Below, one piece after another: positions 1-19,594 of a stretch of 64,000 nt of DNA. The notes beneath the pieces were generated by a model. That model was not told where the DNA came from. It saw nothing but the letters and a program-made list of their open reading frames with translations, and did no database searches. A program made the position numbers and the translations under genes. Within the stretch, counting starts at the first letter, position 1; each line of letters starts with the position of its first letter. Source of the stretch: a virus; IMG/VR virus record IMGVR_UViG_3300044970_002549, positions 27,158-91,157 of that record; one strand, written 5' to 3'.

Positions 1-87
1 ATTTGCGCGGAGTGCTATGCTGATGCGGCACACGCTTCGTTGGCAGAGGAGAGGATTGAGGAGATGAGAGACAATGGCAGCATTTAG
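1..87 (+). CDS. 3' end of a hypothetical early protein (partial)
   Basis: Frame 1 is open from base 1 (ICAECYADAA...GSI*) to TAG at 85-87 and overlaps the next start. Confidence 0.45.
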   Translation: MCAECYADAAHASLAEERIEEMRDNGSI

Positions 88-301
88 TTTCTACGAGTTC
101 ACGGAGGAGGAGGTTATCGCCTTCGTTCGCGCTCTGGTGCGCGGCGGGGACTTTGCTATTGGGCTTTCGTCAGGTGAGGCCATAGAGCGCGCCATAGACA
201 TCATTGACGAGCCGCACAAGTGGTCGCGTGAGATGACGGCGTGGCGAGCTGCCGGCTCACCATACACCTACACCTACATCAAAGAGGGCTTGACGGACTA
301 G
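74..301 (+). CDS. hypothetical early protein
   Basis: 75-aa ORF with GAGGAG SD upstream. Confidence 0.7.
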   Translation: MAAFSFYEFTEEEVIAFVRALVRGGDFAIGLSSGEAIERAIDIIDEPHKWSREMTAWRAAGSPYTYTYIKEGLTD

Positions 302-361
302 TCTGGCGGCTGTAAGGTGATGGTGTCGGGGCTTCCCGATAGACACAGAGAGGAGTAAGAG
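290..361 (+). promoter_or_regulatory. early cassette 1 promoter, +1 hairpin, GACACAG box and SD
   Basis: TTGACG(290)-17 nt-TAAGGT(313); 6 nt; stem GTCGGG-gctt-CCCGAT (325-340); GACACAG; AGGAG. Confidence 0.8.
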
Positions 362-604
362 ATGGACGAAGGGTTTGAGCAATCGGTCGAGATTCCGTTC
401 AGCAAGTTCTATGTTGCGGTAGCGCGCAAGGTTGAGGCCAAGTGCGGCCTGACCCCTGACGACCTTCCGGACATTGACTTCCGAGCGTTCTATTTGGAGC
501 GCGGTACGATTGAGGAGTACCGAGCAGCAATCGCGGAGTGCGTGTATGCCGTACTCGAAGGCGCAGGGTATCCCTTCGCTGATGAGGACGAGTACTACGC
601 ATGA
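362..604 (+). CDS. hypothetical acidic early protein
   Basis: 80-aa ORF behind AGGAG SD. Confidence 0.75.
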   Translation: MDEGFEQSVEIPFSKFYVAVARKVEAKCGLTPDDLPDIDFRAFYLERGTIEEYRAAIAECVYAVLEGAGYPFADEDEYYA

Positions 605-822
605 CTTCGATTTCCCGCAAGAGTGGTCGCTCGTGGAGTCAGTTCTCCGCTCGTACAAAGGCCGAGTACCTTCGGGAGTCGGCAGCGTGGGAGCGTGAGC
701 AGCGGCGTAGGCTATACATCAAGGGTGCGGTAGTAGTGGTTGCGTTTGCGGCCTTCGTACTCTTGGTGCTAGGATTCGGCGGCACGAGCGATTTCGTGCC
801 TGATGTGAGAGAGGTGGAGTGA
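601..822 (+). CDS. small membrane protein
   Basis: ATGA overlap with upstream stop; hydrophobic segment GAVVVVAFAAFVLLVLGFG. Confidence 0.7.
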   Translation: MTSISRKSGRSWSQFSARTKAEYLRESAAWEREQRRRLYIKGAVVVVAFAAFVLLVLGFGGTSDFVPDVREVE

Positions 823-1082
823 TGAGAGCAGAGGAACTATACGAGATTGGCGACGCAGGGTATCTGCGCGTGGACTTGCGCGACGATCTTTGGGTTGCGC
901 TGATGACGCAGGACGGAGTGAACTTCGGCGGTACGCTCTGGAGGGTATCTGATGGTCAGTACTACTCCGAAGGCTGTACGGCAGGGTATCCTGTGTTTTG
1001 TTTCGCTATGACTTCGGACGAGGCAGCTCGGCAGGTTGCGCTCTATATTGCGATGGAGTCGGGAGCCGAGGCTCTGCTGTAA
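819..1082 (+). CDS. hypothetical early protein
   Basis: GTGA overlap with upstream stop; GAGG SD. Confidence 0.7.
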   Translation: MMRAEELYEIGDAGYLRVDLRDDLWVALMTQDGVNFGGTLWRVSDGQYYSEGCTAGYPVFCFAMTSDEAARQVALYIAMESGAEALL

Positions 1083-1085
1083 GAC

Positions 1086-1158
1086 TTGACGCGGCCTATC
1101 TGGTCGTTTAGAATCGAGGAGTCGGGGCTTCCCGATAAGGCACAGCAAGGAGGAGATA
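1086..1158 (+). promoter_or_regulatory. early cassette 2 promoter, +1 hairpin, GGCACAG box and SD
   Basis: TTGACG(1086)-17-TAGAAT(1109); 6 nt; GTCGGGGCTTCCCGAT (1121-1136, identical to cassette 1); GGCACAG; AGGAGG. Confidence 0.85.
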
Positions 1159-1581
1159 ATGTCGGAAGCGTTTAGGGTCAATGTGAACGAGCAGGGCGAG
1201 TCATGGGTCGAGCGCATCGCATGGGGCGACAAGTCCGGCCTATCAGAGCACTACGCGGCGATTGGCTGCGAGCTCGTCCAAGTCGCAGGGTCGGGTGCGT
1301 TTGGCGGCGTTCCTGTGATTGTGTTCGTAGATGAGGAAGGCCTGTATCGTGAGCCTGTCCTGTTCAATCGTGTGGTGTGCGACTTCGTAGCCGAGGCCAC
1401 CGATTCGGCTCCTGCGTACATGATGGGCGGCGGCCTTGTGGGTCGTGCGCTTGTCTTGTTTGATAGCGGCAGCGATTCTCGCGGATTCACCAAAGAGGAA
1501 GCCGATAGAATCAGCGCGCAGCTCGAACACGGCGGCTATCCTACGCTCTCAATGTTCAGGGAGGACGAGCCGCTAGCGTAG
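1159..1581 (+). CDS. DUF3846-like protein
   Basis: IGCELVQV...VDEEGL...N...LVGRAL pattern resembles DUF3846 phage proteins. Confidence 0.65.
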   Translation: MSEAFRVNVNEQGESWVERIAWGDKSGLSEHYAAIGCELVQVAGSGAFGGVPVIVFVDEEGLYREPVLFNRVVCDFVAEATDSAPAYMMGGGLVGRALVLFDSGSDSRGFTKEEADRISAQLEHGGYPTLSMFREDEPLA

Positions 1582-1599
1582 CGCGTCCCTATTGACTAC

Positions 1600-1640
1600 G
1601 AGGCCGTCGGTGTCTGTGCCACCGGCGGCCTCACTTTATC
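1600..1640 (+). terminator. intrinsic terminator with TCTGTGC loop
   Basis: GAGGCCGTCGGTG / CACCGGCGGCCTC stem followed by a T-rich tail. Confidence 0.75.
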
Positions 1641-1642
1641 CG

Positions 1643-1710
1643 CTCATCATTATCAGGCCGCTATTATCAGACCCCCTACCATAGCCCCCCCCCCATACCC
1701 CACGCCCCAT
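1643..1710. repeat. intergenic (TCA/TTA/CTA)n cluster plus C4-tract module
   Basis: CTCATCATTATCAGGCCGCTATTATCAGACCCCCTACC... with four C-runs. Related modules start near 2333, 3056, 3155, 3789, 4388, 4482, 5478, 5641, 6320, 7107, 7209 and 7930. Confidence 0.8.
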
Positions 1711-1749
1711 CGCTACCGGTAGGCCGTGCCTCTGGTCGAAACTGGGGGC

Positions 1750-1825
1750 TTGACGAACGGCACAGGAGGCTCTACCTTGTATGAGTTGGCACTTGCTAAC
1801 AGCACAGGCACAGGAGGAGGAACAG
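1750..1825 (+). promoter_or_regulatory. early cassette 3 promoter, +1 hairpin, tandem GCACAG boxes and SD
   Basis: TTGACG(1750)-17-TACCTT(1773); 6 nt; GTTGGC-actt-GCTAAC; AGCACAGGCACAGGAGGAGG. Confidence 0.8.
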
Positions 1826-2257
1826 ATGAAAGACCTGACGACACCAGCGCAGAAGTGGCTGCGGGAGTTTCTCGGAACACAGGCCGTAGGGACTTGCCCT
1901 ACTTGCCGACAGGCTCTGCCAGAAGGCTCGTGCTTTCGGGCGTTCGTTCGCTACGGCGACGGCGATGACCTTGTGGCCTACACCAAGACTCGCGGTGAGG
2001 CTCTGGCCGTCCTGATCGGTTGGCGCGATGACGAGTGCGGCGATTCGTTCTGGGCTGATCGAGCAGACACTTGGAGCACCCTAAGCGTCGCGCAAGCGGT
2101 TGCTTTGGAGCACGCACCGGCGGCTCTGATCGTTGCTGCCGATGCTGACGAGAAGGTCTACGATGAACTCTTGGCCGCAGTCGAGTATGACTTCATCGGC
2201 ACACCGCTTGTCGGTGCTGTCTGGGTGGACGACCTTACGGCATACTCCGGCAAGTAG
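1826..2257 (+). CDS. hypothetical early protein with a CxxC motif
   Basis: Start moved to ATG 1826 (MKDLTT) because it follows the SD; CPTC motif. Confidence 0.7.
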   Translation: MKDLTTPAQKWLREFLGTQAVGTCPTCRQALPEGSCFRAFVRYGDGDDLVAYTKTRGEALAVLIGWRDDECGDSFWADRADTWSTLSVAQAVALEHAPAALIVAADADEKVYDELLAAVEYDFIGTPLVGAVWVDDLTAYSGK

Positions 2258-2274
2258 TCCGCTCGATTTTCTAC

Positions 2275-2316
2275 GAGGCCACTCCCCATCTGTGCGGGGG
2301 GTGGCCTCTTTCTATT
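2275..2316 (+). terminator. intrinsic terminator with TCTGTGC loop
   Basis: GAGGCCACTCCCC / GGGGGGTGGCCTC stem followed by TTTCTATT. Confidence 0.8.
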
Positions 2317-2446
2317 CCCTGAGCTTTACGCGGTCATCATTAGGCCGTCATTATGCGCTGGCTATTATGCGACCCCTTACCCCACACCCCGACACCCCAG
2401 ACCCCAGCGGTCGCGGTGCGCGCTCCGAAACTCCGCAGCGGGGGGC

Positions 2447-2524
2447 TTGACGCTAGGCCTCGGTGGGTGTACCTTCGATGTGTTGGGTGGCTATGCTCCC
2501 CCGACTAGCACAGAGGAGAACCAG
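2447..2524 (+). promoter_or_regulatory. early cassette 4 promoter and leader
   Basis: TTGACG(2447)-17-TACCTT(2470); 6 nt; GTTGGG...CCCGAC; TAGCACAGAGGAG. Confidence 0.8.
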
Positions 2525-2986
2525 ATGAAGGGGATGACCTACGAGCAAGCGCGCGAGGTGTGCGCCAAGTTGGGCGGGATGTTCTCCGTCCTGACCGCGT
2601 GGTCTGCGCCGACCACCCCGAAGGAGTTCGACCGCCGCAAGGAGAGCGCGGCGAGCCGTGAGGCCGAGCATCGTCCTATCGGGCGCGTCCAGACGACGGG
2701 CGAGCAAGTGGTAGACGACAAGGGGCGCGTTTCCTTTATGTATCGAGTATCGGGTCAAGTGAATCGGGACGAGCACCCAGAGGGCGTATACCTGACCAAG
2801 AAGGGAGAGCCTTGCGTTGATGTCGTCATCTCCGCTCCAACGGAGTACGGCTACACGACTGCTTGCAAGTACGCGGGAGTCGTCGGCTCGGCGTGTGAGC
2901 GTCGTCGCCCGTTCCACTCCCACCGCACTATCAACCTGACGCGGCTCGTGTCGTGGATGGTGTCGGGAGAGGAGCAGGTGCGCTAG
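2525..2986 (+). CDS. early protein, paralogue of 7392-7844
   Basis: Start moved to ATG 2525; shares GGMFxVLTxWSAPTT, GQVNRD, PEGVYL, APTEYGYTTAC and HRTINLTRLV with 7392-7844. Confidence 0.8.
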   Translation: MKGMTYEQAREVCAKLGGMFSVLTAWSAPTTPKEFDRRKESAASREAEHRPIGRVQTTGEQVVDDKGRVSFMYRVSGQVNRDEHPEGVYLTKKGEPCVDVVISAPTEYGYTTACKYAGVVGSACERRRPFHSHRTINLTRLVSWMVSGEEQVR

Positions 2987-3006
2987 GCCTCGCTTCGATT
3001 CGACCA

Positions 3007-3048
3007 GAGCACCCCGTCGGGCTTCGGCTTGGCGGGGTGTTCTATTGT
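3007..3048 (+). terminator. intrinsic terminator (cUUCGg loop)
   Basis: GAGCACCCCGTCGGG-CTTCGG-CTTGGCGGGGTGTTC followed by TATTGT. Confidence 0.8.
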
Positions 3049-3266
3049 CCGGTGTTTATCATCACGCCGTCATTACTCGACCCCCTACCCCGTCCCCCCA
3101 CCCCCCGCTCCCTCATCTCACTCTGTCGTGTCGTTTGATTCTGTCGAGCTGCTAGTCATCAGGTCATCATCACAGGGCTATTAGGCGACCCCCCATACGA
3201 CCCCCGCACCCCCCTTACCCCATTGCTGGATCGGTCGAGTGCTACCGCTCTGGCTCGTCTTGGCTC

Positions 3267-3343
3267 TTGACGGATTGACCGCTGCCGGCAATACTCGAAG
3301 TGTCGGGCGGCTCTGATCTGCTCGACTAGCACAGGAGGAACCT
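3267..3343 (+). promoter_or_regulatory. early cassette 5 promoter and leader
   Basis: TTGACG(3267)-17-AATACT(3290); 6 nt; GTCGGGCGG...CTGCTCGAC; TAGCACAGGAGG. Confidence 0.75.
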
Positions 3344-3733
3344 ATGTATAGGTTCATCGTATTCGTAAGGCGCGTGGTTGATGGCGTCGAGGATGCCGTA
3401 GGCGACACGCTGACCGCTGCCGGCCCTGACTGGGCGTACGACAAGACAGAGGCTGTCGCTACCGACGGCGGCTATCCTGAACCGATGGCTCACTCGGTCG
3501 CTCGCGGGATGACCCAGGCTGCGTATGCGCTGCTCGGTGGTCTGGACTTCTTTGTCCAAGAGTACGACGCTGAGGATGTCGCGGCAGGGTCGCTGACCCC
3601 AGAGGATAAGGAGATGGCGGCGGCTATCTCACTCGGCCTCCTCCCATCTGACGGATCGGTAGCCTTCGTCTCTGGTCTGGTCAATCGAGCAGACGCCAAG
3701 CCCTTCTGGTTCGTGGTCGCGGTTCACGACTAG
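3344..3733 (+). CDS. hypothetical early protein
   Basis: 129-aa ORF behind AGGAGG SD. Confidence 0.75.
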   Translation: MYRFIVFVRRVVDGVEDAVGDTLTAAGPDWAYDKTEAVATDGGYPEPMAHSVARGMTQAAYALLGGLDFFVQEYDAEDVAAGSLTPEDKEMAAAISLGLLPSDGSVAFVSGLVNRADAKPFWFVVAVHD

Positions 3734-3753
3734 CCGTACCGGTTGCGGTCATC

Positions 3754-3792
3754 GAATCCGTCTCACCCTTCGGGGTGGGGCGGATTCTTTTA
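3754..3792 (+). terminator. intrinsic terminator (cUUCGg loop)
   Basis: GAATCCGTCTCACCC-TTCG-GGGTGGGGCGGATTC followed by TTTT. Confidence 0.85.
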
Positions 3793-3905
3793 TGCCGTCA
3801 TTATCAGCGCGCTATTATGCGACCCCTAGCACCCCTGACCCCGCTCCCCCTTACCCCTTACGCTCTGGCGTGTCGCATGTCTGGCGCGCAGCTCGGCTGC
3901 TGCTA

Positions 3906-3986
3906 TTGACTTGACCGCGCCCGGCCGTATAGACTCATGGAAGTCGAGGGAGTAGGCACAGACCCCTCTCGGCACAGGAGGTCAAG
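3906..3986 (+). promoter_or_regulatory. early cassette 6 promoter and leader
   Basis: TTGACT(3906)-18-TAGACT(3930); 7 nt; GTCGAG...CTCGGC with GGCACAGAC in the loop; GGCACAGGAGG. Confidence 0.75.
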
Positions 3987-4328
3987 ATGACCGAGCAAAA
4001 GAAGGCGACCCTCTGGGTTGTCGAGGTGGTATGGAACGGCGAGCCTCATCGTTCGTTCTATGAGGATCGGGAGGAGGCAATCGCTGGGCTGGTGAGCCTA
4101 GCGGACTTTCTGGCTGACTTCACCAGAACCAACAAGACAGGCAGGGCAACCAATCGGGACTTGGAGACCGCTACGGAGTTTCTGCTAGATGATGACCGCT
4201 CGTCATGGGTTGATTGTTTGGAGATTACCGAGTCTGGCATTTGCCCAAGGTGCGAGGCGATGGTCGGCTGGTCTGGCGGCTACTGCGAGCCGTGCGGCTA
4301 CGAGTTCGGGAATCAACTGAACGACTAA
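3987..4328 (+). CDS. early protein with C-terminal zinc ribbon
   Basis: CPRC...CEPC motif; SD present. Confidence 0.75.
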   Translation: MTEQKKATLWVVEVVWNGEPHRSFYEDREEAIAGLVSLADFLADFTRTNKTGRATNRDLETATEFLLDDDRSSWVDCLEITESGICPRCEAMVGWSGGYCEPCGYEFGNQLND

Positions 4329-4350
4329 CGCGGCCGGGCGAAGGCAACAG

Positions 4351-4383
4351 GAAGCCGTCCCCTTCGGGGGGCGGTTTTTTGTT
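4351..4383 (+). terminator. intrinsic terminator (cUUCGg loop)
   Basis: GAAGCCGTCCCC-TTCG-GGGGCGGTTTTTT. Confidence 0.8.
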
Positions 4384-4595
4384 AGTCCTATTAGGTCATC
4401 ACATCACCCCCTACCCCAGCCCCCCCTTACCCCTAGAATCTCACGGCTTCCGATACGGCCGGTCGGAGTCAATAGTCGCAGCTCATCATTAGTCATCATC
4501 ATCACGCTATTACTTGACCCCCCATACCCCAGCGAGTCCGTTTCCCCTTGCCCCATCTGGTCGTTGCGTCTGGTGCGCCATCTGCTAGGTGGGGC

Positions 4596-4672
4596 TTGAC
4601 GTTGCCCGCACTTCGAACTAGTCTGGTGAGGTCGCAGGCTGGCACAGACCCGAAGCGACACAGGAGGTCTAG
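4596..4672 (+). promoter_or_regulatory. early cassette 7 promoter and leader
   Basis: TTGACG(4596)-17-TAGTCT(4619); 6 nt; GTCGC...GCGAC with GGCACAGAC in the loop; ACAGGAGG. Confidence 0.8.
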
Positions 4673-5167
4673 ATGTTCACGGAAACGAACGCAGATCGGC
4701 TCGTCGAGGTACGGGCAGCAATCAAGACAGCGATGGACTCCCTCACCGAGAAGGAGTTCGCCGCAGCAGCAGAGAGCAACACGGAAGCCGGTGGTGCTAG
4801 CCACCTCGTCGTCGTCCCTGCTGCTTTCTGGAATGACCACACCAGCCGCGACCTTGACTCGGTTTCGGTCGAGGTGCGGTCATCAAGCGCGGAGTGGGGA
4901 CTCTATGATGACGGCTCCTATGTCGTCCTGATGATGACTGACGACTCGCTCGCCGAGTTGGTGTCTGACTCAGCGTACTACTCCACTTCGTTTGATGAGG
5001 AGGACTACGGCTCACTCATGGAGTCGGCACGCCGTACCTTTCTCGCCTTGATGATCCAGTCGTCGGCTGCGCGTAGCCTGTTGGACTCGCGCACTTCCTA
5101 CGACAACCTGCGCTGGGCGTTGGGCTTGGAGCGAACCGATGCCGCAATCATCACTGGTGCGGCATGA
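4673..5167 (+). CDS. hypothetical acidic early protein
   Basis: 164-aa ORF behind AGGAGG SD. Confidence 0.75.
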   Translation: MFTETNADRLVEVRAAIKTAMDSLTEKEFAAAAESNTEAGGASHLVVVPAAFWNDHTSRDLDSVSVEVRSSSAEWGLYDDGSYVVLMMTDDSLAELVSDSAYYSTSFDEEDYGSLMESARRTFLALMIQSSAARSLLDSRTSYDNLRWALGLERTDAAIITGAA

Positions 5168-5394
5168 CTGCCGATGACCGCACTTCGACCTGCTCCGATT
5201 GCGAGCAGGTGCTAGGAGACTCGGCATGGTACGCCGACAACAACGGCGGACTCGGGCTGCTGATGTATTGCGACGGCTGCGAGGAGCGAAGGTCTGAACG
5301 CTATGGTTGCGCTCTCATCATCGCGGAGGGTTGCGGCTGCGTTCCGAGTGGTGCCGATTGCGCCTGTGGTTGCGGGGGTTCTGGGCAACTCTGA
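5164..5394 (+). CDS. small Cys-rich, probably metal-binding protein
   Basis: CSDC, CDGC and CGC...CACGC motifs; ATGA overlap. Confidence 0.65.
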   Translation: MTADDRTSTCSDCEQVLGDSAWYADNNGGLGLLMYCDGCEERRSERYGCALIIAEGCGCVPSGADCACGCGGSGQL

Positions 5395-5416
5395 ACCGCT
5401 GACCGCACTTCGACCT
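5175..5416 (+). repeat. 17-bp perfect direct repeat TGACCGCACTTCGACCT
   Basis: Copies at 5175-5191 and 5400-5416; related copy in the cassette 7 promoter at 4606-4624. Confidence 0.85.
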
Positions 5417-5420
5417 AGAC

Positions 5421-5457
5421 TCGCCCTCACTCTTTCGGGAGTGGGGGCGGTTCTTTT
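5421..5457 (+). terminator. intrinsic terminator
   Basis: TCGCCCTCACTCT-TTCG-GGAGTGGGGGCGG followed by TTCTTTT. Confidence 0.8.
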
Positions 5458-5753
5458 CCCCGGGGTTTAGATAGGGCCATCATCAGGCAACGCCTACCCC
5501 GACCCCCCACCCCATTCGTCAGGCTTGTTTATCAGGTCGTTCATCGGGGGTGTGCTGATACCCCCTAGCCCCAGTTCGTCGCTCTCCGTCGTTCCTACGG
5601 GGTCGTTTTTCTGGCGCGCAGCTGCGACCACGCTCACTCACCTCATTATCGAGCCACAGTCATCAGGTCATCATTGATCCCCTATACCCCACCAGCCATA
5701 CACCGCCCCCCTTCCCCCCTTGCCCCTTTGGCGTTGCGTCTGGTGCGACCCCC

Positions 5754-5831
5754 TTGTATTGCGGCCGTGCCTGTTGTACCTTTCAGATGTCGGGAGGCAA
5801 ATGACCTGCCGACTAGCACAGGAGGTCAGAG
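5754..5831 (+). promoter_or_regulatory. early cassette 8 promoter and leader
   Basis: TTGTAT(5754)-17-TACCTT(5777); 6 nt; GTCGG...CCGAC; TAGCACAGGAGG. Confidence 0.75.
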
Positions 5832-6185
5832 ATGACCAAGGAAGAACTGATCCAGCTACTTCGGGAGAAGCCCGACGCAATGCGAGCCCTGAACGGCGAC
5901 GGCCATGGGCTCTACGCGCCAGAGTGGTACACCGAGGTCGGCTGGCCTTCGGAGATGATCAGCCGGCTCAATGTCGTCCATACCAGCGACGGCACGACGA
6001 AGGGCTCCATGTGGGATCACGAAGGCAACATCATCGCGGAACAGCGAGCTGTGTATTCGCTGGACTTCCATGAGGCCGTTGCCAGCATCGTCGGCACCAC
6101 CGCGCATCACAGCATGTTCGGTCGGGGTTCGGCCGCACGCGCCATCGCCATCGAGGTCAGGGCAATCGTGGAGGTTGGAGCATGA
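5832..6185 (+). CDS. hypothetical early protein
   Basis: 117-aa ORF behind AGGAGG SD. Confidence 0.75.
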   Translation: MTKEELIQLLREKPDAMRALNGDGHGLYAPEWYTEVGWPSEMISRLNVVHTSDGTTKGSMWDHEGNIIAEQRAVYSLDFHEAVASIVGTTAHHSMFGRGSAARAIAIEVRAIVEVGA

Positions 6186-6268
6186 TGGAACTCATCGGTG
6201 AGGCAATCAGCGTTGCGACCTTCCTAGTGGCCGTGATTCTGTTCTTGGGTTGGAACTCAATGGTCTAG
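6182..6268 (+). CDS. 28-aa single-TM microprotein (not in the ORF track)
   Basis: MMELIGEAISVATFLVAVILFLGWNSMV; ATGA overlap, GGAG upstream, ends before the terminator. Confidence 0.6.
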   Translation: MMELIGEAISVATFLVAVILFLGWNSMV

Positions 6269-6290
6269 CCCAGTCCAGCTCGGAGAATCC

Positions 6291-6330
6291 GATGACCCCT
6301 CTGCCTTCGGGTAGGGGGGTCATCATTTAT
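6291..6330 (+). terminator. intrinsic terminator (cUUCGg loop)
   Basis: GATGACCCCTCTGCC-TTCG-GGTAGGGGGGTCATC. Confidence 0.75.
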
Positions 6331-6460
6331 GGCTATTCATCAGGTCATCATTATCAGGTCATAGTGCGACCCCTTACCCCATAGTCCGTGCCGTTCCCCT
6401 TGCCCCTGTCTGCTACTGGTTCTTGGGCAGCTGCGATCTGTTGCGCCTGGTGCGTAGTGC

Positions 6461-6534
6461 TTGCGCTTTTTGGTTGATGTGTTTAGACTCTAACTATCGG
6501 CGGCAATGCTTCGCTGATAGCACAGGAGGAAACT
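6461..6534 (+). promoter_or_regulatory. early cassette 9 promoter and leader
   Basis: TTGCGC(6461)-17-TAGACT(6484); 6 nt; ATCGGCG...CGCTGAT; AGCACAGGAGG. Confidence 0.75.
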
Positions 6535-7047
6535 ATGAACGGCAAGGGCAAAACCGGCGCACAGGCAGCAGTCGCACGAGCCGAGGCGTTGGCTCGGTAT
6601 CCAGAGAATCCAACGGCGGTGATGATCCGACCGATTGAGAGCCTCTATGGTCAAGTGTTCGCGGAGCCGACGAGCGCGATGCTCTCGGTCTTTCTTGCGC
6701 CTCGCGTTGAGATCGCATTGGAGCAGGGCGACCTCTGGCGGCAGCCTGTGAGGGTTGTACGCAAGGTGAACGAGTCAGAGATGACCTTCACCGCCGTCCT
6801 CATCGGTAGGGCAGCGCCAGAGAACGAGGCGATCCTCTGGCAGGGTGGCAACGCCCCAATGATGGGGTGGCTCCCTCTGGACGTCGCAGACTTCGCTGAT
6901 GATCACGATGTGGCGTGGTGGATCGCGTCCTGCTACGACGCTTCTAGCGGGGACGCTTATGCGCTCCATCGTCAGGCAGTCCGCAACATCACCACGAAGG
7001 CACGCGCCGCCTACGAAGCGCAGAACGGAGAGTCCGCTCCCTTCTGA
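6535..7047 (+). CDS. hypothetical early protein
   Basis: 170-aa ORF behind AGGAGG SD. Confidence 0.75.
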   Translation: MNGKGKTGAQAAVARAEALARYPENPTAVMIRPIESLYGQVFAEPTSAMLSVFLAPRVEIALEQGDLWRQPVRVVRKVNESEMTFTAVLIGRAAPENEAILWQGGNAPMMGWLPLDVADFADDHDVAWWIASCYDASSGDAYALHRQAVRNITTKARAAYEAQNGESAPF

Positions 7048-7070
7048 TCAAGTCCGGCGACAGGGCAACG

Positions 7071-7103
7071 GAGCCGATCCCTTCGGGGGTCGGCTCTTTT
7101 GTT
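7071..7103 (+). terminator. intrinsic terminator (cUUCGg loop)
   Basis: GAGCCGATCCC-TTCG-GGGGTCGGCTC followed by TTTT. Confidence 0.85.
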
Positions 7104-7316
7104 AGTTCATCATCAGTTCATCATCAGAGGCCAGTCGCACCCCTTACCCCTAGCCCCGAGTCTTGGCTCGGTCTGATCGAAGCGTGGGCAATCGTCGCAG
7201 CTTACGCGGTTATCATTAGGTCAGTCATTACTCATGAGCCAGTAGGCGACCCCTCTACCCCTTACCCCTCTGGATAGGGCGAGTCCGGCGCAAGGGCAAC
7301 CCGCACCGCCTACCCC

Positions 7317-7391
7317 TTGCGCTGCCCTGTTCTGTGGTAGGCTTTGGTTGTCGGGGGAAGGCACAGACCCGAACCGACAAAGGAGGAAACG
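7317..7391 (+). promoter_or_regulatory. early cassette 10 promoter and leader
   Basis: Extended -10 TGTGG-TAGGCT(7338); 6 nt; GTCGG...CCGAC with GGCACAGAC in the loop; AAGGAGG. Confidence 0.7.
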
Positions 7392-7844
7392 ATGAAGGCA
7401 GGTATGACCTTCGCAGCCGCAAGGGCGGCAGCAGCAAAGAGCGGCGGTATGTTCGTCGTTCTTACTGGGTGGAGCGCGCCGACCACGGACAAATGCCGGG
7501 AGAAGCGACGCGAAGCGGCAGCAGGGCGAGCCGCCGAACACCGCGCCATCGGGCGCGTGAAGGTGGAAGCCACAGCCGAGAACGGCGTGGTGCTGTTCCG
7601 CGTTGCGGGTCAGGTGAACCGCGACCAGTACCCAGAAGGCGTGTACCTCAACAAGAAAGGCGAGCCTTGCGTTGGCATCGTCATCGGAGCCCCGACCGAG
7701 TACGGCTACACGACCGCGTGTCCGTATGCAGGGAAGGCAGGAAGCGCATGCGAGAACCGCAGACCCTTCCACGCGCACCGCACCATCAACCTCACGCGCC
7801 TAGTGGCGTGGGAGATTGCAGGAGAGCAGCAGCCCCTCGGCTGA
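7392..7844 (+). CDS. early protein, paralogue of 2525-2986
   Basis: Start moved to ATG 7392 behind AGGAGG; long identical blocks shared with 2525-2986. Confidence 0.8.
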   Translation: MKAGMTFAAARAAAAKSGGMFVVLTGWSAPTTDKCREKRREAAAGRAAEHRAIGRVKVEATAENGVVLFRVAGQVNRDQYPEGVYLNKKGEPCVGIVIGAPTEYGYTTACPYAGKAGSACENRRPFHAHRTINLTRLVAWEIAGEQQPLG

Positions 7845-7862
7845 CCGCCCGCCAGATTTTGT

Positions 7863-7908
7863 AGAGAGCGCACCCTCCGCCCTTCGGGGTGGGGGGTGTT
7901 CTCTTTGT
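7863..7908 (+). terminator. intrinsic terminator (cUUCGg loop)
   Basis: AGAGAGCGCACCCTCCGCCC-TTCG-GGGTGGGGGGTGTTCTCT followed by TT. Confidence 0.8.
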
Positions 7909-8058
7909 CTGGCCAGCAGTACGGCGTGCCATTACCCGCTCATCGATTTACCCCAACCCCTCGCATAGAACAGATGACCCCCCCTACCCATGCGCGCGCT
8001 ACGTGCAAATCAACATTTGACCAATCTGTGGCGATTACCCCTCAACCCCTCTTCCTGC

Positions 8059-8102
8059 AATAAAAAAGCCCAGGCACATGGCCTAGGCGCTAATTTTTTT
8101 TT
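8059..8102. terminator. probable bidirectional terminator at the junction of convergent blocks
   Basis: A-run, GCCCAGGC/GCCTAGGC stem, T-run. Confidence 0.55.
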
Positions 8103-8110
8103 ACAGAAAA

Positions 8111-8599
8111 TTATCTACGAGCGAGCGAGATACGGCGACAGGCTCTGCACTCTCTCCGGCCCCGTGGAGACCGGTAGGTGTTCTCGTCGGTCCATTCATG
8201 TCCCTTGCTGCAATGCGTGATACGCCCAGCAGCTGCAAGACCGCGGAGTATGTTTATTCTGCACGTCACAGGCTCAAGGTGTTTTGTATTGACACACTTT
8301 CGCACCCTACATAGGTGGTCAAGGTGTAATCCCCTGGCAATAGGCCCAACCTCATAGAGATACGCCCATCGGTGTGCAAGGACCTTCTTCCCTTGGTGTT
8401 TGAATCCACCGTATCCCCTTGAGTCAATCGTACCGGTCCATTCATGGCACCCTGTGGTCTCATTCACATACACAAAAGTTCGGAAACGTACCGCGACTTT
8501 TTCTTCCACTACGGGCTGACAGATGCGACCATCGGTGTGGGGGGCCGCCGCGCGCCCGTAGGCACCCCTAGGAGCGACGGAGAGGCGTGATTCTGGCAC
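8111..8599 (-). CDS. HNH endonuclease with C-terminal zinc finger (start uncertain)
   Basis: CHEWTG...AHRWAY...LDHLCRVRKCVNTKHL...N; THCSKGH...CRAC. Confidence 0.85.
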   Translation of the reverse strand: MPESRLSVAPRGAYGRAAAPHTDGRICQPVVEEKVAVRFRTFVYVNETTGCHEWTGTIDSRGYGGFKHQGKKVLAHRWAYLYEVGPIARGLHLDHLCRVRKCVNTKHLEPVTCRINILRGLAAAGRITHCSKGHEWTDENTYRSPRGRRECRACRRISLARR

Positions 8600-12539: not shown

Positions 12540-12785
12540 TTACTTCTGTCCGAAAAGCTCGGACTCGCTCAATCCAAGATACTCAGCCAACCGCTTCCGC
12601 ATCTCTGCGGTCATCGGTGCATGGCCATACTGTACCTGGTTCAGATACCCATAGGATACACCAAGGTGCATGGCAACCCATCGTCGCTTCACCCCGGAGT
12701 CCTTGATAAGACGCCACACCTTGGCGTTCTGTTCTCGCTGCTGCTCGCGCAGCCCTTTATTTACTGCACCGCTCTGCTTACTCAT
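12540..12785 (-). CDS. XRE-family HTH regulator
   Basis: VAMHLGVSYGYLNQV...LAEYLGLSESELF; start moved to ATG 12785. Confidence 0.8.
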   Translation of the reverse strand: MSKQSGAVNKGLREQQREQNAKVWRLIKDSGVKRRWVAMHLGVSYGYLNQVQYGHAPMTAEMRKRLAEYLGLSESELFGQK

Positions 12786-13053
12786 TTCGGCCTTCCCATG
12801 TTGGCAAAGCGCCGGTCTTGACCCATTCGTCAATCGCGTACGTCACGCCCTCGCATATCAGCCACCATGTTTCTGGATCGGTGCTTGCGTATTCGCCATT
12901 TCGCATCTCGTCTCGAATGTGCGCCCACAGCTCTGGGGCCATGGCTTCGCGCATCTCGAAATCTGATACATCCTCAACCAACGAGGAGATGATCGACGAC
13001 GCAGCTACTGCGCCCTGCTTGACGCTCTGAAAATCCAAATGTCCGTCACTCAT
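12778..13053 (-). CDS. hypothetical protein
   Basis: AAGGAG SD; overlaps both neighbours. Confidence 0.65.
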   Translation of the reverse strand: MSDGHLDFQSVKQGAVAASSIISSLVEDVSDFEMREAMAPELWAHIRDEMRNGEYASTDPETWWLICEGVTYAIDEWVKTGALPTWEGRNE

Positions 13054-17640: not shown

Positions 17641-17857
17641 ACTTACATGGTAGCAGTAAACACCAAACACAAGATAAAAGATTTATTGTAGAATGTCCAC
17701 ATATTGTCCGCGTGATGCTTTGTTTGGTAAAGAATCCTAAACATTCATCATTGTATTCGATGTGTCTCTATGTCCATCTTGTGATATTAGAGATTATTAT
17801 TGTATTGACGCGGCCGTCATCGGACATCAATATGTCCGGGTACCTAGGGAGGTCATT

Positions 17858-19594
17858 GTGGATTTTAAAGTCTTTACAAACGCCCTTAAGGCGTATGAGG
17901 GGCCAAATGGCGACCTCTTTGTTACCGGCACAACCTCATCGACAATCAGGGATCTGCACGGCGATGAGATGACTCTAAATGCCATTCGCACGATGGCCGA
18001 TACCGCAAAGCAGAATATGACGATCTTCTTGAACCATAACTATATGGTTCCCGAAGATCTTTTCGGCTCGGTTACTGATGCACGAGTTGTAAAGCGCTGG
18101 GACAGCGAAGCCGGTTTCGAGGTGTACGACCTTGACATTGACGTACTTGTCTGCAAGGAAGACGAAAACCCAGAGGCCATGCGGGCATACAAGGCCATTA
18201 AGCGCGGGGTAAAGCTTGGGCTTTCTATTGGCGCGCGTGTGGATAGGGTCTCAAAGAAGAAAGACGCAAGCACTGGTGAGGACACGTATGTAATCGACTC
18301 CGTAAAGCTTATGGAGGCCTCAGTAGTCGGAATTCCGGCTAACCAGCGCTCATACCTACAGAATGCCGTCAAGAGCCTCAAGGCCGCCGAGAAGTCGGGG
18401 GATTTTGAGATCTCTGAGAAAGCTGCCCCTGATTCGGTGCGTGAAGGCGACTTTGTTTCATGGGGCTCAAGCGGCGGGACTGCTCGTGGTCGCGTTGAAC
18501 ATGTTATGCGCGAGGGCACTCTGGGAGTTCCTGATTCTGACTTCAAAATTGAAGCCACACCGGAAGATCCAGCTGCTCTTATCCGAATCTGGAGGCCAGA
18601 AGGAGACAGCTGGCAGGAGACCGACAAGCTTGTCGGGCACAAGGTTTCTACGTTGAACAAAATTGAATCTTTGAAGTCTATCGTTGAATCCGTCTTGGCA
18701 GGTGACCAGGAACTGGAAACACAGCGGTCATCGCAGCCTTTTGCTTCTTTGGCCCAGGAAAGGTCTGAGTCGGAGTCGACTGAGACGTCAAAGGCCCAAG
18801 AAGCGGGCGATACTGAAGGAGAAAATATCGTGGGAGACACTGAGAAGGCTACCCGGGTGACCGTCACTGTCACGCAAAGCGACGACAAGGAGACGAAGAA
18901 GCCGGAAGTTAATGAAAACACCCAGGATGAAGCTGTTGCAGCCGAGTCCGATGTCGCCAAGTCTGAGCAGGAAGCCCCTGCCGAGGAGACGCCAGCAGTC
19001 GATGCCACCCCAGAGGTGGAGCCGGTTGCCCCAGAGGCTGAACCTGCGGTAGAGGCACCTGTCGAGACTCCCGTTGAGGAGTCGGCTGCGCCAGTCGCGG
19101 AAGAGGTCAATGCAGCGCACGAGGCCCTTCAGGCCCTTGGCGCCGTACTTGTCCACGCAAGCGCCGACGAGCGCGCGCAGATCTTGTCAAAGGTTGCAGC
19201 GTTCGCAGATGGCGAACCAGCAGCTGAAACCGAGGCCGAAGTAGCCGAGGTTGTTGTCACCGAGGGTGAAGCAGATGCCGTTGAGGCGCCTGAGGTCACT
19301 CTGGAAATTGTTGAGGCCAAGGGCCTTGACGAAGTAACTGCCATCGCCAAGTCTGCGCTGGATGCAGCCTTTGCGGCACAGCAGGAGGTCAGCGCGATCA
19401 AGTCGCAGCTCACCGAACTGGTTGCCCAGAAGGCCAAGGTCGAGTCTGATCTTGCGAAGGCGCTTGATGTCGTCGGTCGATTGATGGATCTTCCATCGGG
19501 TCGAAAGGCATATTCGAGTGCATCCGTAAATTCTGGGACGAAGGCCCCATGGCTTTCGCCCGTAATCCAGCGCATGCTGGACAGCCAGGAGTAA
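17858..19594 (+). CDS. prohead protease with Tudor-like insert and scaffold region
   Basis: GTG 17858 behind GGGAGG; RDLHGDE, NH, GLSIG, EASVVGIPAN; VREGDFVSWGSSGG...VGHK; acidic and coiled-coil C-terminus. Confidence 0.88.
   Translation: MDFKVFTNALKAYEGPNGDLFVTGTTSSTIRDLHGDEMTLNAIRTMADTAKQNMTIFLNHNYMVPEDLFGSVTDARVVKRWDSEAGFEVYDLDIDVLVCKEDENPEAMRAYKAIKRGVKLGLSIGARVDRVSKKKDASTGEDTYVIDSVKLMEASVVGIPANQRSYLQNAVKSLKAAEKSGDFEISEKAAPDSVREGDFVSWGSSGGTARGRVEHVMREGTLGVPDSDFKIEATPEDPAALIRIWRPEGDSWQETDKLVGHKVSTLNKIESLKSIVESVLAGDQELETQRSSQPFASLAQERSESESTETSKAQEAGDTEGENIVGDTEKATRVTVTVTQSDDKETKKPEVNENTQDEAVAAESDVAKSEQEAPAEETPAVDATPEVEPVAPEAEPAVEAPVETPVEESAAPVAEEVNAAHEALQALGAVLVHASADERAQILSKVAAFADGEPAAETEAEVAEVVVTEGEADAVEAPEVTLEIVEAKGLDEVTAIAKSALDAAFAAQQEVSAIKSQLTELVAQKAKVESDLAKALDVVGRLMDLPSGRKAYSSASVNSGTKAPWLSPVIQRMLDSQE
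18830..19594 (+). CDS. putative nested scaffolding protein (in-frame internal start)
   Basis: AAGGAG at 18816-18821, 8 nt before an in-frame GTG at the start of the acidic region. Confidence 0.55.
   Translation: MGDTEKATRVTVTVTQSDDKETKKPEVNENTQDEAVAAESDVAKSEQEAPAEETPAVDATPEVEPVAPEAEPAVEAPVETPVEESAAPVAEEVNAAHEALQALGAVLVHASADERAQILSKVAAFADGEPAAETEAEVAEVVVTEGEADAVEAPEVTLEIVEAKGLDEVTAIAKSALDAAFAAQQEVSAIKSQLTELVAQKAKVESDLAKALDVVGRLMDLPSGRKAYSSASVNSGTKAPWLSPVIQRMLDSQE

Follow-up and report, generated by a model that had tools for sequence, protein, structure and literature searches.

The hairpins T2 and T3, which close two early-gene cassettes of an uncultured phage, display apical loops whose invariant letters, CTGTGC, are the exact complement of the invariant core, GCACAG, of a tag in the leaders of the early mRNAs. 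GCACAG is a real leader tag. Comparison across relatives indicates that T2 and T3 are members of a class of strong terminator hairpins peculiar to this clade and that the loop of these hairpins is a separately selected character. On the basis of modelled structures and energies, we tentatively propose that the terminator loops may pair as RNA with the tagged early leaders, likelier in trans than within one mRNA. This RNA reading is favoured over an orientation-independent DNA operator because the loops are invariant, the stems covary, both partners are predicted to be unpaired and the predicted energies are reasonable.

The early cassette array

The window, that is, the whole stretch of 64,000 nucleotides that was analysed, comprises bases 27158-91157 of a 91,157-bp IMG/VR virus record. 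The phage is uncultured and is present in lake-water metagenomes. A megablast comparison of the early region with 50,697 phage records gave zero matches, and the 610-aa ORF at 17762-19594, which has no assigned function, yielded only short and distant matches to Roseobacter and Limnohabitans phages, one annotated as major capsid and one as hypothetical. Deposited phages thus include no close relative of this one.

The early cassette array occupies the window from position 1 to ~8000, plus ~700 nt upstream of it. Each cassette runs from a sigma-70-like promoter through a 5'-terminal hairpin, a leader with GCACAG by the SD, one to three small ORFs of unassigned function and a terminator to a repeat-rich spacer. 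Pfam searches with ten cassette ORFs returned only sub-threshold matches, to DUF3846 (ORF2), UPF0547 and HTH_31; the AlphaFold model of ORF3 was poor (pLDDT 66, one model of five), and a Foldseek search with it against the PDB gave none at E <= 0.001. The spacers that follow every terminator (1640-1740, 2320-2440, 3050-3240 and later ones) contain (G/C)TCATCAT-type repeats and then C4-tract repeats (GACCCCYTACCCC). These repeats are kept in relatives, and a similar C-tract block is found ~8.7 kb upstream of the window.

The order of the cassettes differs among relatives: ORF2 - ORF3 - unit-4 family in the window, ORF2 - unit-4 family - ORF3 in L008, and unit-4 family - ORF2 - ORF3 in L016/L017. 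Moreover, ORF2 is swapped within a fixed frame. In a strain that is 95-99% identical (run X5), 402 other letters stand in its place, with junctions at the leader tag and 4 nt before T2 (window 1136-1596), and in L009 (3379-3743) ORF2 is 43% identical, yet T2 is identical. Judged by their differing order, the cassettes appear to shuffle as promoter-to-terminator modules.

The leader tag

The tags in the window are distributed as follows.

342-348, + strand: variant tag GACACAG in the unit 1 leader
1140-1145, + strand: GCACAG in the unit 2 leader, between the 5' hairpin and the SD
1802-1813, + strand: tandem tag GCACAGGCACAG in the unit 3 (ORF3) leader, abutting the SD
2508-2513, + strand: GCACAG in the unit 4 leader (GCACAGAGGAG)
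3329-3334, + strand: GCACAG in the unit 5 leader
3943-3977, + strand: unit 6 leader; 5' hairpin with apical GGCACAGAC (tag 3956-3961) and a second, SD-adjacent tag at 3972-3977
4631-4663, + strand: unit 7 leader; 5' hairpin with GGCACAGAC at its apex (tag 4642-4647) and the variant GACACAG at 4657-4663 by the SD
5816-5821, + strand: GCACAG in the unit 8 leader
6520-6525, + strand: GCACAG in the unit 9 leader
7350-7378, + strand: unit 10 leader hairpin with GGCACAGAC at its apex (tag 7361-7366)

An earlier, sequence-only reading of this DNA had placed GGCACAGAC in the leader loops of units 6, 7 and 10, where we also find it, at 3955, 4641 and 7360. The first 8 kb of the + strand contain 13 copies of GCACAG where 2.9 are expected (the maximum in 2000 simulations was 10), and over the whole window there is no enrichment (30 copies vs 43 expected). 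In 22 related records, 119/132 + strand copies of GCACAG occupy leader positions and 55/63 + strand copies of CTGTGC lie within hairpin loops. In leaders, the 6-mer complementary to the loop reaches ~35 times the density that it has in other places, far above the values for other loop 6-mers. The tandem form GGCACAGGCACAGG is present in the leader of every ORF3 homologue with upstream sequence. A tagged leader is found in the majority of the early cassettes of these phages, and many leaders in relatives have no tag.

According to the RNA folds, the tag is displayed in two ways. In one class of leaders it is part of an unpaired linker that joins the 5' hairpin to the SD; in the other class, GGCACAGACCC is carried at the apex of the 5' hairpin, in a loop of ~8 nt (AGGCACAG), on stems that differ between cassettes. 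The mean predicted cost of opening the tag is 1.5 kcal/mol vs 3.5 for other 6-mers in 78 distinct leaders, the sequences being related and the P value indicative only. The base 3' of the tag is a purine in 49/51 leaders. This base faces a loop U, which is present in 13/14 hairpins.

Another motif pair was considered and rejected: the loop CTCATCM and GATGAG in leader loops have a density ratio of just 2.6, which is not significant. The loop belongs to a third conserved class of non-tetraloop terminators, with the stem acccccagag, observed in L011-L029 (e.g. L016:1414-1440), and GATGAG is present in some leader hairpin loops of relatives.

Terminator hairpins T2 and T3

The terminators of the array comprise the two hairpins with a CTGTGC loop and a contrast class capped by UUCG.

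1600-1632, + strand: T2, hairpin after the ORF2 (DUF3846-like) cassette; 13-bp stem, loop TCTGTGC at 1613-1619, weak U-tract
2275-2308, + strand: T3, intrinsic terminator after the ORF3 cassette; 13-bp stem, loop ATCTGTGC at 2288-2295, tail TTTCTATT
~3009-3040: T4, UUCG-capped terminator
3754-3787, + strand: T5, UUCG-capped terminator, the example of the contrast class
~4354-4375: T6, UUCG-capped terminator
5421-5450: T7, UUCG-capped terminator
6291-6324: T8, UUCG-capped terminator
7070-7097: T9, UUCG-capped terminator
7870-7899: T10, UUCG-capped terminator

T2 is predicted to fold with a 7-nt loop, UCUGUGC, at -27.4 kcal/mol, and T3 with an 8-nt loop, AUCUGUGC, at -29.7 kcal/mol. The hairpins have the G+C-rich stem and the position of intrinsic terminators, with stems of 13-15 bp, energies of -27 to -30 kcal/mol and a place 18-20 nt past the stop codons. 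The terminator scan called T3 and did not call T2, whose U-tract is weak (tail CACTTTAT); T2 homologues in relatives have better tails, e.g. TTTTTTTT in L013. The loops of T4, T5, T6, T8, T9 and T10 are cUUCGg, and that of T7 is UUCG closed by a U-G pair. Both the loop census of the sequence-only reading (six cUUCGg and one TTCG beside the CTGTGC loops of units 2 and 3) and its positions for CTGTGC, 1614-1619 in T2 and 2290-2295 in T3, are correct. Its statement that a 9-mer in T2 is complementary to the leader loops holds for the sequence match, but GTCTGTGCC takes in the paired closing bases of the stem (G1612-C1620). The complementarity between T2 and the tag that is both free and conserved amounts to 6 nt, or 7 nt if the loop U opposite the purine after the tag is counted.

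Two copies of CTGTGC in 8 kb are at chance level (simulated mean 2.8, P(>=2) = 0.78), and the number of copies by itself is not significant. The probability of finding CTGTGC inside a random loop of 7-8 nt is ~0.0007-0.0011.

Conservation of the loop among relatives

Relatives were gathered without regard to the loop, by way of the proteins whose genes precede the hairpins. Homologues of ORF3 (~50% aa identity) came from 20 IMG/VR loci and 12 metagenome loci; the loop ATCTGTGC is kept after all of the loci with downstream sequence (31/31), on seven different stems. Behind ORF2, which was followed down to 43% aa identity, CTGTGC is kept in 6/6 contexts, as TCTGTGC, ATCTGTGC or AACTGTGC. T2 itself is identical in L009 and L032, the L008 counterpart has A-T in place of the closing G-C pair and the loop ATCTGTGC, and the counterpart in L026/L030 has the loop AACTGTGC.

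When 14 distinct hairpins were aligned, 100% of the cells were paired and five pairs were altered on both sides, with three to four pair types at each of the three loop-proximal pairs. The stem covariation score of 0.333 was higher than that of all 500 shuffles and all slid controls. The loop letters CTGTGC are invariant in 14/14 of these hairpins, and variation is confined to the two letters 5' of them. The sequence-only reading was to fall if the loops were not conserved in homologous terminators; checked in this way, the loops proved invariant, and the stems covary. The hairpins share a GAGGCC...GGCCUC base, and their inner stem is variable. The same stem scaffold with a TTCG loop is found after other ORFs; therefore, the loop is a character separate from the stem. 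In a sister terminator lineage, CTGTGC is partly buried in the stem, and there it mutates (loops TCG, CTG and TCTGT). The invariance of the loop, the divergence of the stems and the mutation of the buried lineage together indicate that the loop is selected separately and is not a passenger of the stem.

The clade is represented by ~27 IMG/VR contigs and 12 metagenome loci, and tag and loop are invariant in all of them. The search for more distant relatives, in which covariation between tag and loop could be sought, used ORF2, ORF3 and unit-4-family profiles together with a hairpin pattern and gave the same clade. The sole outside match of the hairpin pattern, L069, was a chance match in a coding region and was discarded.

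Predicted pairing between loops and leaders

The duplex between loop and leader has a predicted energy of -8.2 to -10.7 kcal/mol, which leaves a net pairing energy of -6.2 to -9.7 kcal/mol after the opening cost is paid; both ranges cover 11/11 leaders. A UUCG control loop gave about +6 to -5 kcal/mol, and 0/150 permuted loops matched the observed mean. The complementary sequences are predicted to be unpaired on both partners, as in a loop-target pair. The earlier proposal of loop-leader pairing is partly supported by loop conservation, predicted accessibility and energies; tag and loop, both invariant, show no covariation with each other.

In the proposed mechanism, the CUGUGC loop and GCACAG would pair over 6-7 bp, either as loop and single strand or as loop and loop. 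Two to three early mRNAs would, through their stable 3' hairpins, target all of the tagged early leaders, chiefly in trans, and the pairing would tune the translation or stability of the leaders' mRNAs, e.g. to provide feedback or to shut off early expression. An encounter of the RNAs, the direction of the effect and the preference for trans over cis are what we infer here. Several observations count against RNA pairing: 6-7 bp is short for action in trans, only two to three of ~10 terminators carry the CTGTGC loop, and the tag is missing from many leaders in relatives.

Among the sequencing runs, no listed holder is on record as RNA. Two wastewater runs of one study, marked 'RNA?' and possibly DNA, contain a relative in the form of short contigs, whose ends happen to fall near T3, T5 and T6; these contigs were not counted as evidence.

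Two rules of partner choice were tried and dropped. The leader of the downstream neighbour is usually, although not always, tagged, and L013 is an exception to the rule that each loop pairs with the leader of the cassette that follows. In some relatives, a GGCCUC just past the stop codon could pair with the terminator's 5' arm; this alternative is absent from the window.

A DNA site, an independent loop function or a relic

The match between loop and tag could also reside in duplex DNA, where GCACAG/CTGTGC would be one 6-bp site recognised by a DNA-binding protein of the phage or its host (for example a repressor of early genes or a roadblock), placed in one orientation in the leaders and in the opposite one in two terminators. 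As duplex DNA the motifs are identical, and binding of such a protein would account for the match just as well. The tag lies downstream of every early promoter, and an HTH-like ORF is found at 12540-12833; its match to HTH_31 is below the Pfam cut-off, and the protein cannot be tied to the box. The strain in the window also has an extra copy inside a promoter.

1759-1769, + strand: GGCACAGGAGG copy in the -35/-10 spacer of promoter 3

This copy, which the sequence-only reading had offered in support of an operator, is present at these positions, but it is not conserved in L008 and L009; judged from its distribution, it is probably a local scar. The X5 strain shows no listed difference here, and the X19 relative differs. 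Nor does the site resemble a duplex operator, in which a dyad or repeated sites at a fixed promoter distance would be expected: it is a single asymmetric 6-mer without dyad symmetry, is tandem solely in the ORF3 leader, and varies in its distance to the -10 element from 17 to 36 nt. The tag's distance has an sd of 4.5 when measured to the -10 element and of 5.2 when measured to the start codon, values that do not discriminate between an RNA and a DNA reading. Moreover, the terminator copies always lie exactly in the hairpin loop and one class of leaders has the tag exactly at the apex, a placement that is relevant only to single strands. The box is also preferentially unpaired in RNA folds. 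We therefore regard a DNA site as unlikely.

It is also conceivable, if quite improbable, that the CUGUGC loop has a function of its own, being read by a protein or a host RNA or serving termination or 3'-end stability, and that its match to the tag is due to coincidence or shared ancestry. The loop is under selection whatever its partner, and some CTGTGC terminators follow cassettes whose leader is untagged. T2 may also have originated by inverted duplication: in a by-eye comparison, its 5' half looks like a leader hairpin with the tag in its loop, taken as the reverse complement, and the T2-tag complementarity could have arisen in this way, not by selection for pairing. Such a duplication would explain the origin of the complement, not its retention. 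Coincidence is opposed by the exact 6/6 complementarity of two independently invariant motifs (p ~1/4096 per comparison), by the two variable loop positions being exactly those outside the complement, and by the prediction that no permutation of the loop binds the leaders as well.

Pairing might instead take place within one mRNA, the terminator loop folding back on the tag of its own leader, as in icaR, to close the mRNA and control its translation or decay. Units 2 and 3, the two cassettes of the window with the loop, each have a tagged leader, ORF3 is always accompanied by a tandem tag, and action in cis would make 6-7 bp sufficient. The paralogues of relatives do not follow this pattern: unit-4-family cassettes with an ATCTGTGC terminator have an untagged leader in 4/4 cases, and tagged unit-4-family paralogues have other loops in 14/14 cases. 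Therefore, same-mRNA pairing is not general; furthermore, about eight tagged leaders of the window belong to cassettes with UUCG terminators. We consider this arrangement very unlikely, and if the RNAs pair, action in trans would be the simplest reading.

Finally, it is very doubtful that the loop is a functionless relic that travelled with the terminators as cassettes duplicated, recombined or underwent gene conversion. Such a history would fit the terminators' clear homology, with their common GAGGCC/GGCCTC base, and the swapping of cargo ORFs within a conserved leader/terminator frame, but gene conversion would homogenise the inner stem, in which at least five double changes have occurred while six loop letters stayed fixed, the loop is fixed despite ~50% aa divergence of the adjoining ORF, and the lineage with CTGTGC partly buried in the stem does mutate.

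Anti-SD hairpins upstream of the window

Two tandem hairpins with CUCCUCCC loops follow a RadC-like gene ~1215-1114 nt upstream of window position 1 (L001:888-989). Their loops are the complement of the SD GAGGAG, and YUCCUC loops are kept in L009, L031 and L032. The hairpins have weak Rfam matches to ar14 (29.1 bits vs a gathering threshold of 58.8) and sX13, and they fit a habit of loop-to-leader pairing. Searching window positions 1-8200 and 3 kb upstream against Rfam gave none at the gathering threshold; the best were HepC_CRE (22 vs 140) and the ar14 match.

Between the anti-SD hairpins and cassette 0, ~1040-680 nt upstream of the window, ~360 nt without an obvious ORF lie 3' of a near-consensus promoter (TTGACA...CATAAT). 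This stretch has no Rfam match and no CTGTGC, and it is a candidate for a structured ncRNA.

As a speculation that we think unlikely in its full form, the terminators of two to three early mRNAs might double as kissing-loop riboregulators that read GCACAG in trans, as the 6-nt address of a regulon of modular early cassettes, with the upstream anti-SD-loop hairpins reading the SD, the two forming a two-part address system for early timing.

Comparison with known loop regulators

The proposed design resembles antisense control exerted through loops. RNAIII of Staphylococcus aureus uses C-rich loops that pair with SD regions and makes loop-loop contacts with the rot and coa mRNAs; in these kissing contacts, few base pairs suffice and RNase III is recruited (PMC2837412). 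The likeness to the phage lies in apical loops on stable hairpins, a short conserved complement of the ribosome-binding region and several mRNAs addressed. In contrast, RNAIII is a dedicated regulator directed at the SD, whereas the phage loops sit on ordinary early-mRNA terminators and their predicted target is a tag beside the SD. In the icaR mRNA of S. aureus, the 5'-UTR pairs with the 3'-UTR (PMC3868564). Here too a short 3'-untranslated motif can pair, by its sequence, with the part of an mRNA leader where ribosomes bind, although the icaR motif is an anti-SD within a long 3' UTR and acts on its own mRNA, and the phage motif is in a terminator loop.

The CI RNA of phage P4 is an antisense immunity RNA. 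The same role is given for c4 of phages P1/P7 (RF01695) with reference to Citron and Schuster 1990, as cited in PMC2864571. Like the RNAs considered here, c4 and CI are phage RNAs whose short loops match boxes in early-gene leaders and control early expression. They differ in being processed, leader-derived RNAs with two-part complementarity, whereas the phage has a sigma-70-type cassette array and not an immunity operon; neither c4 (RF01695) nor any other Rfam family reached its gathering threshold here.

RNAI/RNAII of ColE1 and CopA/CopT of R1 form kissing complexes. Fully complementary apical loops of 6-7 nt, borne on stable stems, are common to these plasmids and the phage, where the loop with the tag, AGGCACAG, and the T3 loop, AUCUGUGC, share the geometry. 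The plasmid RNAs are cis-encoded antisense RNAs, complementary over their full length, unlike the phage RNAs, which match in the loops alone. A ColE1 loop-loop structure is among those mentioned in PMC2837412.

The 6C RNA of high-GC Gram-positives is an sRNA with anti-SD loops (PMC6486639), and ar14 and sX13 in Rfam are likewise. As is proposed for the phage, many mRNAs are bound by a few hairpins whose loops are conserved, and no long complementary stretch is involved; however, the loops of 6C, ar14 and sX13 are C-rich and directed at the SD or G-rich sites, whereas CUGUGC is predicted to recognise a phage-specific tag. The phage layout, with its proposed regulatory loops on ordinary early-mRNA terminators in a cassette array, differs from all of the systems compared.

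Significance

The proposed interaction is directly testable with short synthetic RNAs and compensatory mutants, for which culture of the host is unnecessary. If the motif were instead read as DNA, the site would mark the early regulon's set of operators. Should the pairing be real, terminators of ordinary mRNAs would also regulate a tagged set of early genes, and the tag and its complement would provide a small orthogonal tag/anti-tag pair for synthetic biology. The phage would then join the few known examples of regulators that reside in 3' ends or terminator loops, and its roughly ten independent promoter-to-terminator cassettes would be coordinated or shut off without a dedicated regulator gene.
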